Positions 8,584 through 40,175 of a DNA stretch of 45,702 nt are shown in pieces. Numbering within the stretch: the first letter of the stretch is position 1; each line of letters starts with the position of its first letter. This DNA is from Octopus sinensis (taxonomy: Eukaryota): the NCBI RefSeq assembly GCF_006345805.1, contig NW_021834693.1, positions 1-45,702 on the forward strand, read 5' to 3'. The notes below the pieces were generated by a model, which saw only the letters and a program-made list of their open reading frames with translations, was not told the DNA's origin and made no database searches. The translations under genes were made by a program, and so were the position numbers.

Positions 8584-9815
8584 TTAGCGTCCGTTTTCCA
8601 TGCTAGCATGGGTTGGACTGTTCAACTGGGGTCAGTGAAGCCAGAAGGCTGCATCAGGCCCAGTCTGATCTGGCAGTGTTTCTAAGGCTGGATGCCCTTC
8701 CAAACGCCAGCCACTCCGTGAGTGTAGTAGGTGCTTTTTACGTGCCACCCGCACAGGTGCCAGACGGAGCTGGCAAACGGCCAAGGACGGATGGTGTTTT
8801 TTACGTGTCACCGGCACGGAGGCCAGTCGGGGTGGCGCTGGCAACGGCCACGATCGGATGGTCCGCTTACTTGTCACCGGCACTGGTATCACAGCTGCAA
8901 TTTCCACTGATGTTGATCGACTTCGATTTTGGTTCTGCTTTCTGATATCTGATTTGATTTGGTTTGATTTTGATTTTTTGATTTTGATTTTCACTTGTCT
9001 CAACGGGTCTTCACAAGTGGAGTTCTGTGTCCCAAGAAGGAAAGGTATGTATAAGTCGACTGGCTACATACCAGGTAGAGGCCACGGGTTATGGTCTCAC
9101 TAGTCTTGCCGGGTCTTCTCACGCACAGCATACTTCCATAGGTCTATGTCTCTAGTCATTTCCTTGGTGAGACCTAAAGTTCGGAGGTCGTGCTTCACCA
9201 CCTCGTCCCAGGTTTTCCTGGGTCTACCTCTTCCACAGGTTCCCTCAGCTGCTAGGGTGTGGCACTTTTGCACACAACTATCTTCATTCATTCTCGTCAC
9301 ATGACCATACCAGCGCAGACGTCTCTCTTGCACATCACAACTGATGCTTCTTAGGTCCAACTTTTCTCTCAAGGTACTTACACTCTGTCGATTATGAACA
9401 CTGACATTACACATCCATCGGAGCATACTGGCTTCATTTCTTGCGAGCTTACGCATATCCTCAGCAGTCACAGACCATGTTTCACTACCATGTAGCATGG
9501 CTGTACGTACACATGCCTCATACAATCTGCCTTTTACTCTGAGCGAGAGGCCTTTTGACACCAGCAGGGGTAAGAGCTCTCTAAACTTTGCCCAGGCTAT
9601 TCTTACTCTAGCAGTTACACTTTCAGCGCACCCACTGACTTGGTCACCTAGGTAGTGGAAGCTATCTACTATTCTAGTTTTTCTCCCTGGAACGTGGTAG
9701 AAGTTGGTCTCTGCACATTTTCAGTGTTTATTGCTCCTGAGCATCTGCCACAGACAAAAACTCTTTTCCTAGTTAGCCTTCCTTTGGCATTGCTGCACCT
9801 CTTATGTGTCCACTG
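8584..9815 (-). mobile_element. 5'-truncated RTE-clade LINE (RT C-terminus plus ~515-bp 3' UTR)
   Basis: WTHKRCS..FVCGRC, HYLGDQ, RIAWAKFRELLP upstream, then the open ORF at 9100-9561; UTR homologous to many solo copies. Confidence 0.92.
9100..9561 (-). pseudogene. RTE LINE ORF C-terminal fragment
   Basis: KGRLYEACVRTAMLHGSETW, MLRWMCNV, RLRWYGHV.RM and GRGRPRKTW are typical RTE motifs. Confidence 0.92.
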
Positions 9816-11110: not shown

Positions 11111-13062
11111 GTGATGATGGTGATGATGATGATGATGATGTTGGTTATTTTCCTCAAATGAAATTAATGAAAGAGAACCCATATCAATAGAAAAGGGAGA
11201 GATAATTACTGGCCCTTTTCTCTCAAGTGATATGTCTTTCTGACTGTTTCGGGTTGATGACAGAATATTTGATGACAGAATGTTGAAAAGAATTTGAGTC
11301 ATTACTCTTATCCCTGGCTTCAACATTTTCATTCTCAGCCTTTGCTTCAGAATCACTGCTACATGACAGACCAACACAACCAGGCGTTTCCCCAAGAGAA
11401 ACAGAAAGTGAAACTGAACTGTCAGAGAGAAGAACTATTTCATGTTTTGTATCTCCACTTGCATTGCAAAGCAGCTGCAACTGGGATTGTTCATTGGAAG
11501 TTTCAATTTGAACAAATGCTTTGTTGCCTTCCTCAAGGGACGTATCAAGGCTGTCACTAGCAGAAATATGTTCTTCCACTGAAGACAAATTTAGGGAACT
11601 ACTAGGTAAGGGCAACTCTTGGCAAGGTCCTGATGAAGAGTCTGAAATGTTAGGTAATGGTGAAGATGTAAACTGACCGGGATCAATTCTAGACTTGAAC
11701 AACCCATAGCTGCTTCTACCTGATATTACTTCTGTATTCATGCTCTCTGGAGTCGACCAAGTCTGGCTGCTACATGGATATGAAGTATCAGATAAAATAA
11801 CACTTGTATGTGACTCCAAACATGGATGTTCATTTTTGCTGTCTCTACCAGAATCAGTCAGTACCAAATCAGATTGGCCAAGACGACCAATTGTTTCATT
11901 TAAGAGATCAGCAGTTTCAGAAAATTGATTCTGGAATTATTCTTAGATTTTAAATTACTATTTACAATTCTTCTTTTGCGACTAGAAAACCAAAGGCTAG
12001 AAAGGCAACAAAAATATTTGTTGCTATGAAACATTTTTTTCTTCCGTTCATGGTGAGCAGACACTGGAGTGTTTTGTTCCATGTAATTCTCCAACTGACA
12101 CTTTTTGATGAGTTTTCTTTTGCGAGAGATAACTTGCTGTCGCTTTGGTGATCTCCCCCATACTTTCTTGGTGCAAGCAGTTTTCTCAATTCGACACTGT
12201 TTTATATAGTGTGAATGATATTCAAACTTTCTCAGACCACGTGGTTTGTTATAATTTTGACCATAAGGGCAGTCTGAGGTGTCCCCTGTGAAAGCAGGGT
12301 AACCATCAGTTAAACTTGATAAGGATGAAGTAGACAAAGGTTCGGCATTACCTTCATCATTAGCCTCAGTTCTATGAATACTGCTAAGGTTAGCATATGT
12401 TGGTCTCTTTTCCAAACGAGGTGTTGTAACATTTACCTCAATGGGTTTTCTCTGTTCATCACTTGAACAGGTTTGACGCTTATCAGATATAAACTTTGTA
12501 AAAGAATCTTCCTTTGAATATTTTGTTGATTTTTTAGGCCATGAGGAAACAGATGACAATGATGATGATAATGATGAGGACATTGGTGGTGACAGTATAC
12601 CATGAGTTTTTAACGAGTCAGGTTGATTTGTTGGAGACTGAACCATATTGGATGCTGAACTTTGCGACATAGGTGAACAGTACAATTTGTAATTTGTAGT
12701 CTGACTATGTAGTATAACCGGAGGCATTGGTGTTGACTCAGAAGGACAGAGTAAATTTTTGTTCCTCGTGTCACCAACTTTTGATTGTTCAAAACTCTGA
12801 TCTTCATCATCGTCTGTGTCACTGGACATTTTTAATAGGGCTTCAATGGTACGGTTCCCATAATCTAAGCCTACATTTGAAGATGTAATTGGAAGAGGCC
12901 CGCAATGAGAAAGTTTTTCCATGTTGGGCAAAATTGTTCTACAACCCATCCGACAGAGTGTTTTTTTTTTAATTTTTCTTTCACAGAATATGTTACCATC
13001 TATCTTAATGTTATTCATCAAATCAGGATTGTCAACCAGTGAAGTGAGGGATCAAATGCAAC
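10170..13062 (-). pseudogene. Large (~2.9 kb) disrupted coding exon of an unidentified Ser-rich protein with a poly-His tract
   Basis: Chain of abutting same-strand ORFs (373, 214, 195, 102, 72 aa) in non-repetitive DNA; acceptor ttttatttccag| before 13062; several frameshifts; lower boundary uncertain. Confidence 0.7.
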
Positions 13063-22382: not shown

Positions 22383-22995
22383 GGATCTTTTCCTTTTGAA
22401 CGGCAGTTTTCAACACAATTTCTAGTTAACTAAACACTTTTAAACTTCGTATACTGGTAGAATGTGTCAAAATAAAACATTTTTTCTCTTGGCTTTCTTG
22501 AGAAAATTGTAATTTGTAAGTTTAACGTAGTTTAATTTTTCGAATTTTAACCAATCCTATGGCCTCTATTTCGCTAAAATCATTTGCTGCGTCTAAAACA
22601 GGCAACATCCTGTCACTAACTCTAATCCTCACCCTAACCCTAAATTTTAGCCTTTCGTTTTTTTTCTTCTTAATTGTTAAGTTAATTTAAGGATAACAAT
22701 TAAGAAAAAAAAACGAAAGGCTAAAATTTAGGGTTAGGGCGAGGGTTAGAGTTAGGGTTAGTGACAGGATGTTGTCTCAGTTTTAGACGCAGCTAATGAT
22801 TTTAGCTCAATAGAGGCCATAGGATTGGTTAAAATACGAAAAATTAAACTATGTTAAACTTATAAATTACAATTTACTCAAGAAAGCCGATAGAAAAAAT
22901 GTTTTATTTTGACACATTCTACCAGTATACGAAGTTTAAAAGTGTTTAGTTAACTAGAAATTGTGTTGAAAACTGCCGTTCAAAAGGAAAAATCC
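22383..22995. mobile_element. Foldback element/MITE with ~300-bp inverted arms carrying telomere-like repeats
   Basis: Arms 22383-22679 and 22694-22995 are near-perfect reverse complements; ccctaaccctaa on the left, ttagggttaggg on the right. Confidence 0.92.
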
Positions 22996-23020
22996 ATATA
23001 TATATATATATATATATATA

Positions 23021-23290
23021 AAACAATTGCAGCGTGGAAGGTGTTTGTAAGCCATTTAAGAAACACACAAAAGCCGTTCAATTCACTTCAACATTTAAGT
23101 TTAATTTGTCAAAACATTTTCGTCGCTTTAAGACCGCAACCTGTTCACTGACAAAAATGTTGAAGTGAATCGAACGGCTTTTGTGTGTTTCTTAAATGGC
23201 TTACAAACACCTTCCACGCTGCTATTGTTTTCGTTCCAGCACACGATCTCAGATCAAATCACTTGCTATGCAAGTACATCTCCGTAATAT
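23021..23290. mobile_element. Penelope-like pseudo-LTR fragments in inverted arrangement
   Basis: Arms 23021-23096 and 23155-23230 are reverse complements; flanked by (TA)n; homologous to 36868-37195; contains the hammerhead fold. Confidence 0.6.
23105..23155 (-). ncRNA. Candidate minimal type-I hammerhead ribozyme (variant core)
   Basis: tttgtca GTGAACA g gttgc ggtcttaaa gcgac GAAA atgt T T tgacaaa: 7-bp stem I, 5-bp stem II, minimal stem III. Confidence 0.62.
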
Positions 23291-23399
23291 ATTTATGTAT
23301 ATACATCTCCGTAATATATATGATTTTGATTTTGATTTTTCCAGTTTCAGCTAATGAGCTGTGGCCATGCTGGGGCACCGATTATATATTTTTATTTAT

Positions 23400-36867: not shown

Positions 36868-37195
36868 AGTTACAGAGATGTACTTGCATAGCAAGTGACT
36901 TGATCTGAGATCGTGTGCGGGACGAAAACAGTTGCACGTGAAGAGTGTTTATAAGCCATTTAAAGAAACACACAAAAAAACAGTTAAGATTCACTTCAAC
37001 ATTTAAATTAAAATTGGTCAAAATACATTTTCGTCGCTTTGAGACCGCGACCGTTAGCACGATATTTTGTCAGTGAACAGGTCGCGGTCTCAAAGCGACG
37101 AAAAATATTTGGCAACTTAAATTTAAATTTGAAGTGAATATGTAACGGTTTTTTGTGTTTCTTAAATGGCTTACAAACACCTTCCACGCTGCAAT
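36868..37195. mobile_element. Penelope-like pseudo-LTR inverted pair, second locus
   Basis: Homologous to 23021-23290; inverted about ~37055-37065; flanked by (TA)n. Confidence 0.6.
37067..37115 (+). ncRNA. Candidate minimal type-I hammerhead ribozyme, second copy
   Basis: ttgtca GTGAACA g gtcgc ggtctcaaa gcgac GAAA aata T T tggcaa. Confidence 0.6.
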
Positions 37196-38685
37196 ATATA
37201 TAACACACCTATATATATATGTATGTAGTATGAGTGTATATGTGTATGCATGTATGTGTGTGTGTGTGTGCGTGTCTGTGCTTGTGATTGTCCTCCACCA
37301 CTGCTTGACAACGAATGTTGGTTTGTTTACATCCCTGTCACCTAGTGGTTTGACAAAGGAAACAGATAGAATAAGTACAATGCTTACAAAAATAAAACTG
37401 GAGTTGATTCATTAAACTACAATTCTCAAGGCATTGCCCCAGCATGGCACAGAGCAATGGCTGGAAAAAGCAGAAGAATAAAATAATTGAGGGGGACCTT
37501 ACATGGTAGCTAGACCTGGTAGAAATAGCAGCAAAATTTCCCCAAATCACACCTTACTGTCTTATATATGTATATGTATGTATGAGCCTATGAGGGAGAC
37601 CTCTACATGGCAGCTAGACATGGTAGAAATAGCAGCCCAAATCTCCCTCAAATCACACCTTACTGTCTTATCTTTCTGCTACTTGGATATACGTGTTATA
37701 TTCGTCTAAAAAAACTTTCCTGTCACACACTCACGCACACGCACACACACACACACACACACACACGCGCACCGTCACACACACACACACGCGCACACAC
37801 ACACACACACGCACGTTAGCTTACAATTTTATTTATATATTTGCGTGTGTATGTGTGGAAACGGAAGTGGGAGGCAGAGTGAAAGAATCACTCACCACAG
37901 TAAGTGAATTAGTTTCATTTTATTCGTTGCCCACTGTGTGTGTGCGTTTGCGTGTGGTGTAAACCAGACTAAGAAAAGCATTTGACACACACACCAGAAT
38001 GTGAGTTTTCTGTAAATTTTGCTTAATTGGAGTTTAAATTTTAAAAACTGGACCTGGCATGACGCGATGCATTGTACTCTTAAAAATGCCAGGTAAATTG
38101 TAATTGAAGAAATCCTATATTGTAGATTTGTATAACTCCCAAAGGGAGGCAGATAAAATCTGCCTTTTATAATAAGACTAGCAGAATCGCCCGGCGTTGC
38201 TCGGGTTTGTAAGGGAAATAACTATATAAGCATTTTTAGAGAGTTATAGCCAAAAAATAGGAAAAAAATGCATTAAAAATGGAAAAAAAATTAAGGTAAA
38301 TTTCTTTTTAAATCGTTGACACATCGTAGATATTTTTAGAGAGTTACTTCCCTTATATAATAGCGAAAAAAATGCATTAAAATGGAAAAATATGATGGTA
38401 AATGTTTTTAAATCGTAGACTCATCGTAGACGCGCGCTAATACCCAGAAGGGCTCGATATGACTCACGACTATAAGATACCCGGTTTTGGTTACACTGCA
38501 CCGCAAAATGTGGGAGTAGTTAGGAATCTAAATCGTAGGAGACAGACACACAACTTCACTCTTATATATAAAGATATAAGCCACGTAGTTATATACACAT
38601 ACTTTGTTATATACGCATTCTTAAAAGAAAATGTTATTTTGAATACAACATTTATAAGAATAAAATATTTTTTGGTTTTTCTTAA

Positions 38686-38925
38686 CCCTTTCGTTACTAT
38701 ATTTCTGACCAAAATACACCCCTTATGTGTTTCAATTAATTTCTAACGTAATCATAAATTTAGTCTGGTTTCATTAAACAACTATAACTTTTTTATTTAT
38801 CAATATATTAATGTGATTTTTGGAAGATAATTTAATGAAATGTCCTCAAAACCAATTCTATACTATAATTTTGTCACAAAGTGACTCTAATTGCAGGTAG
38901 ATACAGGTAAATTCAACAATATATA
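38686..38925. mobile_element. piggyBac terminal segment
   Basis: TTAA|CCCTTTCGTTAC, the same TIR as the MITE at 7302. Confidence 0.8.
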
Positions 38926-39960
38926 AAATTATTAAAATTTTGTTCAAACATCGCTATAGAAAATGGGTTATTAGCTAATATTCAATTGGGTATACAACAA
39001 AATTTTATGATAGAATTTGTTATTCTGGGTAACTTTCTGTAAAATTATTAAAATTTTGTTCAAACATCGCTATAGAAAATGGGTTATTAGCTAATATTCA
39101 ATTGGGTATACAACAAAATTTTACGATAGAATTTGTTATTCTGGGTAACTTTCTGTAAAATTATTAAAATTTTGTTCAAACATCGCTATAGAAAATGGGT
39201 TATTAGCTAATGTTCAATTGGGTATACAACAAAATTTTACGATAGAATTTGTTATTCTGGGTAACTTTCTGTAAAATTATTAAAATTTTGTTCAAACATC
39301 GCTATAGAAAATGGGTTATTAGCTAATGTTCAATTGGGTATACAACAAAATTTTACAATAGAATTTGTTATTCTGGTAACTTTCTGTAAAATTATTAAAA
39401 TTTTGTTCAAACATCGCTATAGAAAATGGGTTATTAGCTAATATCAATTGGGTATACAACAAAATTTTACGATAGAATTTGTTATTCTGGGTAACTTTCT
39501 GTAAAATTATTAAAGTTTTGTTCAAAAATCGCTATAGAAAATGGGTTTTAGCTAATATTCAATTGGGTATACAACAAAATTTTACAATAGAATTTGTTAT
39601 TCTGGGTAACTTTCTGTAAAATTATTAAAATTTTGTTCAAACATCGCTATAGAAAATGGGTTATTAGCTAATATTCAATTGGGTATACAACAAAATTTTA
39701 CGATAGAATTTGTTATTCTGGGTAACTTTCTGTAAAATTATTAAAATTTTGTTCAAATATCGCTATAGAAAATGGGTTATTAGCTAATATTCAATTGGGT
39801 ATACAACAAAATTTTACAATAGAATTTGTTATTCGGGGTAACTTTCTGTAAAATTATTAAAATTTTGTTCAAACATCGCTATAGAAAATGGTTATTAGCT
39901 AATTCAATTGGGTATACAACAAAATTTTACGATAGAATTTGTTATTCTGGGTAACTTTCT
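38925..39960. repeat. 116-bp tandem repeat, 9 copies (about 1.2 more at 40864-41001)
   Basis: tgttcaaa starts at 38941, 39057, 39173, 39289, 39404, 39519, 39634, 39750 and 39866. Confidence 0.96.
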
Positions 39961-40175
39961 GATACCCATAATAATATTTATGGCAAAATAGGCCTTAATT
40001 TCATTTAAGGTTGTGGGAAATAACAAACTATCCTTTCTTTCGTTTTGTTTACGTTTAGCGTAACGTTTCGTTTCTGCCGTAATGATTTCAAATGATTTCA
40101 AATTCGAAAAAGTAAATAGAAATAGTCTAAGGCTTTACTCTTCTGGGAAAGTCTGTGGCTTGGTGCAGTTTCTTC
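39935..40175 (-). pseudogene. piggyBac transposase fragment (second copy ~40976-41215)
   Basis: FEIITAETKRYAK..PTTLNEIKAYFAINIIMGIRKLPRITN matches the piggyBac pattern ETN.YA..T..EI.AF....MG..KLP. Confidence 0.8.

Follow-up and report, generated by a model that had tools for sequence, protein, structure and literature searches.

A hammerhead-like motif with a swapped G3-C8 core pair in an octopus repeat that is likely the end piece of a Penelope-like element

Introduction

Minimal hammerheads (min-HHRs) occur in the pLTRs of metazoan Penelope-like elements (PLEs). Their hallmarks are one nucleotide that lies between 9 and 10.1, a G10.1-C11.1 pair, a palindromic helix III and an arrangement in opposite-strand pairs (PMC4209133). 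Even with a canonical core, these motifs cleave poorly (PMC4209133), and it has been proposed that their helix III is completed by pairing within a dimer (PMC4209133; PMC6765202). What PLE hammerheads do in vivo is still a mystery according to PMC7761336. In the 56-row alignment of the supplement of Cervera and De la Pena 2014, positions 3 and 8 are C3-G8 in 53 rows, U3-A8 in two and U3-G8 in one, and no row has G3-C8. The U3-A8 variant of the min-HHR is represented by Cercyon of Schistosoma (PMC4209133), and a natural U3-A8 covariation has been reported by Perreault et al. (PMC3088659).

A natural hammerhead with a G3-C8 pair was not found in the literature searched, and relevant reports beyond that search could contain one. 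An engineered C3G/G8C double mutant of the hammerhead reportedly goes back to Martick and Scott 2006. In the PAc hammerhead, which belongs to a PLE of Anolis, either C3G or G8C alone is dead, and C3G/G8C is partly active, only when protein is present (PMC11167929). Elsewhere, G8C alone lowered the rate approximately 100,000-fold and C3G partly rescued it (PMC8495972); a G3-C8 construct is also mentioned as laboratory data in PMC3884650. On the way from C3-G8 to G3-C8, each single mutant is nearly dead (PMC11167929; PMC8495972). It is also known that cleavage is not needed for PAc insertion in vitro (PMC11167929).

PLE insertions are described as carrying an inverted truncated pLTR and an optional tail, with a bias towards microsatellites (PMC3846280; PMC8557442), and their pLTRs cover the first codons of the ORF (PMC3846280). 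Among the matches listed, the octopus entries in the supplement of PMC8557442 are Naiads. Here, a window of 45,702 nucleotides from Octopus sinensis (contig NW_021834693.1) is analysed, in which a hammerhead-like motif with a G3-C8 core lies just upstream of an ORF start.

The hammerhead-like motif and its two copies

Two copies of the motif, A and B, are located approximately 14 kb apart on opposite strands of the window (Table 1). The motif is ordered as helix I, a 7-nt box, an extra G (in copy A at 23141), helix II, GAAA, helix III, U17 and the 3′ strand of helix I. The canonical core box CUGANGA, with C3 and G8, is not matched, as both copies and the family carry G3 and C8. A Watson-Crick pair between positions 3 and 8 is possible as G-C, and U4, G5, A6 and A9 are intact. 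Of the 13 conserved core letters, 11 are canonical, and the deviating two are each other's pairing partners. The triplet is UUU in copy A and in the family majority and AUU in copy B, and the helix III hexamer of copy A pairs with itself with two G-U wobbles.

Table 1. Positions of the motif, of the arms of the two insertions and of the ORF starts in the window.
Feature	Position	Strand	Remarks
Hammerhead-like motif, copy B	37066..37116	+	type I layout
Copy B helix I	37067-37072 / 37110-37115	+
Copy B core	37073 (G3) to 37079 (A9); C8 at 37078	+
Copy B extra nucleotide between A9 and G10.1	37080	+	G
Copy B helix II	37081-37085 / 37095-37099	+	5 bp, closed by G10.1-C11.1
Copy B GAAA, G12-A15.1	37100-37103	+
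Copy B helix III region	37103-37108	+	not self-complementary in copy B
Copy B N17	37109	+	U17
Hammerhead-like motif, copy A	23105..23155	-	same G3-C8 core, G3 at 23148
Copy A helices			7-bp helix I; 5-bp helix II with one U-G
Insertion B sense arm	37053..37194	+	13 nt upstream of helix I, motif, AT-rich spacer, first 29 nt of ORF
Insertion B inverted arm	36870..37052	-	83% like sense arm; tail of about 60 nt
Insertion A sense arm	23020..23158	-	tail-less, adjoins (TA)n; 89.5% identical to sense arm of B
Insertion A inverted arm	23155..23287	+	75/77 nt like sense arm
Insertion A tail	23232-23287	+	56 nt, inverted arm only
Element ORF start, insertion B	37166..37194	+	cut short at arm end
Element ORF, first 31 codons, insertion A	23196..23288	+

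A descriptor that accepts any Watson-Crick pair at positions 3 and 8 finds exactly two sites in the window, which are copies A and B. In 100 windows shuffled block-wise by dinucleotides, G3-C8 sites appear at 0.05 per window with the loose descriptor, and at 0.01 per window when helix II has at least 5 bp and helix I at least 6 bp. The two copies are therefore a hammerhead-like motif beyond chance. Other measures are less distinctive. The core 8-mer by itself is not significant (four matches in the window versus 1.64 expected), and the folding z-scores of the copies, of about -1.8 to -1.9, are mildly unusual. The minimum-energy fold is not the bare hammerhead in either copy (-12.0 versus -10.3 kcal/mol in A and -12.9 versus -11.6 kcal/mol in B). 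Helix cells are paired in 96.6% of cases versus 17-48% in slid controls, with a structure that was derived from the same sequences. An Rfam scan of the window at E<=5 gave 101 matches, none of them to a hammerhead family; they were hairpin and microsatellite noise only. The 71 metagenome matches to an 18-nt motif were dismissed as chance, as none of them extends into helix II and GAAA.

All four hallmarks listed in PMC4209133 are found in the octopus motif. With the min-HHRs of that report it also shares the type I topology, with the extra nucleotide between A9 and G10.1, a helix II of 5 bp, a short helix III, U17, the position in a terminal repeat and thousands of dispersed solo or opposite-strand copies (PMC4209133). 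It differs in its G3-C8 core pair and in a helix I that, with 7 bp, is at the long end. In addition, the extra nucleotide is G in octopus and H in the min-HHR consensus, although G is seen in one published row. As precedents, the table of PMC4209133 shows an extra G in Nasonia, a UUU triplet in Crassostrea and a palindrome of 6 nt in Drosophila. Judged from its sequence, the octopus motif is best regarded as a G3-C8 variant rather than a literal member of the PLE min-HHRs, showing every listed trait except the letters C3 and G8. Compared with the engineered C3G/G8C of PAc, it has identical letters at positions 3 and 8, likewise in what would be a PLE hammerhead, but the former is a laboratory construct whereas the octopus G3-C8 is the natural state of a family (PMC11167929). 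The two also differ in that the PAc ORF starts inside helix II, whereas the octopus ORF starts 57 nt after the predicted cut site (PMC11167929).

Architecture of the insertions

Both copies belong to insertions with a common plan, in which a sense arm with the motif is fused at its 5′ side to an inverted arm, a tail of 55-60 nt is present on one side only, and (TA)n tracts flank the whole. In insertion B, the sense arm has no tail and runs into (TA)n. The inverted arm begins at about G10.1, without an intact core, contains a frameshifted ORF start with its ATG at 36959 and abuts (TA)n. In insertion A, the inverted arm begins only past the predicted cut site, 16 nt downstream of it, and consequently has no motif. 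The inversion junction is thus at a different point in each insertion. Of the four arms in the window, two begin at helix I or upstream of it, one begins within the core or directly behind it, and one begins 16 nt downstream of the cut site; none of the four begins at the predicted cut site itself. The earlier note on this DNA had counted a third, core-damaged copy at this locus. That copy is the inverted arm of copy B's own insertion, 5′-truncated at a junction at about 37052-37055; it is neither independent nor point-mutated, and it adds no independent evidence.

The pLTR-like traits, that is, a repeat that covers the ORF start, an adjacent inverted truncated copy and a one-sided tail, are found in both insertions. 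Endonuclease-bearing (EN+) PLEs, such as Penelope of Adineta (PMC3846280) and Neptune, Hydra and Naiad (PMC8557442), also have an inverted 5′-truncated copy beside a direct repeat, a one-sided tail, a repeat over the first codons and a (TA)n target. By contrast, the octopus insertions in the window consist of the terminal unit of 270-325 bp only, with no RT or endonuclease seen, and their tail of 55-60 nt is longer than the 30-40 bp described for PLEs (PMC8557442). Target duplications are unreadable in (TA)n.

Other classes of repeat were considered as well. A MITE, with fixed TIRs and a constant centre, was rejected because the inversion junction differs between A and B and the tail is on one arm only. 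Retrozymes lie in head-to-tail tandems without an ORF, and a non-LTR retrozyme was rejected because the octopus copies are inverted, with a single motif per insertion and an ORF start. The non-LTR retrozymes of animals are, like the octopus repeat, small non-autonomous repeats with a type I hammerhead (PMC7229834; PMC7761336); nevertheless, their hammerheads are classical and most have a stable helix III, unlike the octopus motif (PMC7761336).

At 23294-23319, the last approximately 13 bases of the tail of insertion A plus TA repeat twice in tandem with a spacing of 27 nt, as slippage or renewed priming at the target would produce.

The reading frame and related Octopus proteins

In both copies, an ATG is located 57 nt downstream of the predicted cut site, and in insertion A the frame is open to the end of the tail. 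The 31 residues of this ORF start are identical at 29 positions (94%) to the N-terminus of an O. sinensis protein (P0001, XP_029654200.2), and they also match an O. bimaculoides protein (P0002), which was the only match of a phmmer search with the 31 residues. The match to O. sinensis agrees with the cephalopod source assumed in the earlier note. P0001 overlaps an O. vulgaris protein (P0003) with 78% identity over 151 aa, so that the window ORF is linked to P0003 through P0001 and the ORF continues in three Octopus proteins. P0003 contains PPKF (144), LRWR (169) and TDKSG (292), which are similar, but not exact, to GxKF/Y, RWK and DKG/DKT, the N-terminal motifs named for PLE clades. The last motif in P0003 presumably resembles the start of a PLE RT.

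Only N-terminal pieces were retrieved, with neither an RT nor a GIY-YIG domain linked to the ORF, and no longer homologue of 570-2000 aa was found. A Pfam search of P0003 gave no family, no relatives were found among viral contigs, and a PDB sequence search gave chance matches only. A degenerate motif scan gave one viral and five prokaryotic loci, none of the six with a tblastn match beyond the motif. The Atlas search with P0001 gave nothing above 0.8, and DUF8422 clusters of rotifers at 0.96-0.97 in the Atlas are a lead. The AlphaFold model of P0003 has a mean pLDDT of 35.

Taken with the architecture, the octopus repeat is likely the end piece of a Penelope-like element, comprising pLTR, ORF start and tail. 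From the sequence features we strongly infer the PLE identity, and we infer that the element is endonuclease-bearing.

In the gene model of P0001 (LOC115227545), approximately 225 residues from the element ORF are joined to part of a methyltransferase (Pfam PrmA/Methyltransf, residues 243-310). The model is probably mis-joined, although exonisation is possible.

Differences between copies and the state of the family

The earlier note had taken the variant core as a family trait, and not as a one-off mutation or sequencing error, because stem differences between the two copies keep pairing. The 8-nt core and GAAA are indeed identical letter for letter in copies A and B. The two differences on which the argument relied are also real: helix II has C-G at 37083 in copy B and U-G at 23138 in copy A, and helix I has U-G at 37112 in copy B and U-A at 23109 in copy A. 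Nevertheless, this choice was selective, as only these two of the seven differences in 51 nt keep a pair, both through G-U, and the one in helix II is a CpG transition. One other difference lies in loop II, and with another the outermost pair of helix I is lost in copy B (U-C at 37066/37116). The remaining three (37105-37107) lie in helix III, where copy B is slipped and a self-dimer has A-A at two of six appositions. Since helix III is out of register in copy B, this copy is probably inactive.

The family was surveyed in four of 24 public sequencing runs, one for each of four organism codes. Contigs of the runs were aligned to 36990-37200 at 80% likeness with a listing threshold of 3%; copies less than 80% alike are invisible at this setting, and the depth-weighted contig counts are a crude measure of frequency. 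Between 2,093 and 4,826 contigs were aligned per run. The ratio of peak summed depth to median long-contig depth is approximately 17,000-43,000, which indicates an order of magnitude only and is not a copy number; the family probably comprises tens of thousands of copies. Among the rows listed, no alternative letter reaches 3% in the core (37073-37080) in any of the four runs. The variant core is thus a family trait, as had been claimed, and G3-C8 is the founder state of the family.

The runs also bear on the helices. At 37105, 98.6-99.3% of the depth departs from copy B towards AATATT, and the majority of loose ends beyond 37104 reads AATATT in all four runs, so that the palindromic helix III supposed earlier is the family majority. 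This majority also has A at 37116, which gives a 7-bp helix I together with a perfect helix III palindrome. Minor letters are observed in loop II (37086, 37089 and 37093) at 1.7-8.0%. In helix II, the CpG transition C37099T, which keeps the pair, is found at 2.3-5.4%, and the CpG transition G37097A, which breaks it, at 2.0-3.6%. Positions that are neither core nor CpG are as invariant (<3%) as the core. Consequently, the run data show homogeneity and a founder state, not selection on the core. Minor letters at 37062-37064 and the share of copies with U-G in helix I (37112) suggest several subfamilies, all of them G3-C8.

Stem covariation was therefore discarded as support. Two-sided changes were found in none of the 12 pairs among the four arms, where the homogeneity of the family leaves little power, and no compensatory helix change at 3% or more is implied in the four runs. 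It had been set beforehand that pair-breaking changes as frequent as pair-keeping ones would speak against covariation, and this is what copies and runs show. Pairing-preserving stem changes thus lend the family trait no support. The genomic copies appear to be decaying neutrally at present, and both copies in the window are ordinary decayed transposon fragments.

In the runs, the loose ends remain alike for approximately 15-20 nt upstream of helix I. Thus, the templates carried an uncut motif.

A probable slow self-cleaving RNA in the founder element

In the founder element, the motif may well have worked as a slow self-cleaving RNA, and we consider this the probable reading, with considerable room for doubt. 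In this scheme, two motifs, either in tandem pLTRs or on two RNAs, would pair through their AAUAUU palindromes and so complete helix III. The G3-C8 pair would then form the active core as C3-G8 does, and cleavage, probably slow, would follow U17. Uncut RNA would be copied into (TA)n by target-primed reverse transcription to give the short copies, and with such templates no arm would be expected to start at the cut site.

What speaks most for function is the swap itself, in which the paired letters have both changed complementarily and the other 11 are intact. By a post-hoc calculation, two random core changes would fall on positions 3 and 8 and remain Watson-Crick with a chance of 1/78 x 1/3, approximately 1 in 230. 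The swapped pair is likely a natural variant of the self-cutting RNA of PLEs. A more demanding proposal is that the family crossed the valley between C3-G8 and G3-C8 and fixed a working swap in tens of thousands of copies and in several Octopus species; this is put forward tentatively, as a possibility that we hold to be somewhat doubtful.

Alternatively, the motif could be a true descendant of a PLE hammerhead that is catalytically dead or irrelevant, with G3-C8 as a chance outcome or a relic, with cleavage dispensable for spread and with a fold that may serve protein binding or as a template signal. We take this to be rather unlikely, though it has to be weighed seriously. Under drift, one would not expect just two paired letters to change complementarily while the remaining 11 core letters, helices I and II and the palindrome stay intact. 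Nevertheless, hammerhead mutants left PAc insertion in vitro unimpaired, and no RNA ends were seen at the PAc cut site (PMC11167929); Naiads proliferate without canonical hammerheads (PMC8557442). Such a descendant would also agree with the absence of arms that start at the cut site in the window and with the loose ends in the runs, which indicate uncut templates as for PAc, and the mutant with both C3G and G8C is only partly active. A different possibility is that the likeness to a hammerhead is a coincidence in a foldback repeat, such as a MITE-like DNA element or another non-PLE repeat. A large inverted repeat makes up the region, no hammerhead is matched in Rfam, the folding z-scores are weak and no RT was retrieved. 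However, the helices form within one arm and not between arms, and descriptor sites are expected at 0.01-0.05 per shuffled window. In addition, fixed terminal inverted repeats would have neither a point of inversion that differs between insertions nor a tail on one side only. The motif also lies shortly upstream of an ORF whose continuation is a long protein with PLE-like motifs, which is where PLE hammerheads lie. A coincidence is consequently regarded as very improbable.

If a working swap was indeed fixed across that valley, the octopus family would be a first case in animals of a G3-C8 hammerhead that is natural and works, and it would provide direct evolutionary evidence of selection for catalysis in PLE hammerheads. 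Had the active conformation been under selection, a natural double transversion that leaves precisely the tertiary 3-8 pair intact is what one would expect. Standard descriptors and Rfam miss this motif family, which is very abundant in octopus genomes, and every search based on CUGANGA would have missed it. Reports of PLEs 'lacking hammerheads' may therefore need to be re-checked with descriptors that allow any Watson-Crick pair at 3-8.

Other features of the window

A separate foldback element is located at 22388-22991, with arms of 212 nt that are 96% complementary and degenerate telomere-like hexamers near its centre; it ends approximately 30 nt from insertion A, across a (TA)n tract. On the minus strand, a frame of 206 aa at 9100-9720 may correspond to the C-terminal portion of an RTE-type LINE protein, and two long open frames rich in serine (237 and 383 aa), probably exons of a host gene, are present at 11223-13051. 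Finally, tandem arrays are found at 38845-39963 and 2241-2638, with units of approximately 116 nt and 44 nt, respectively.
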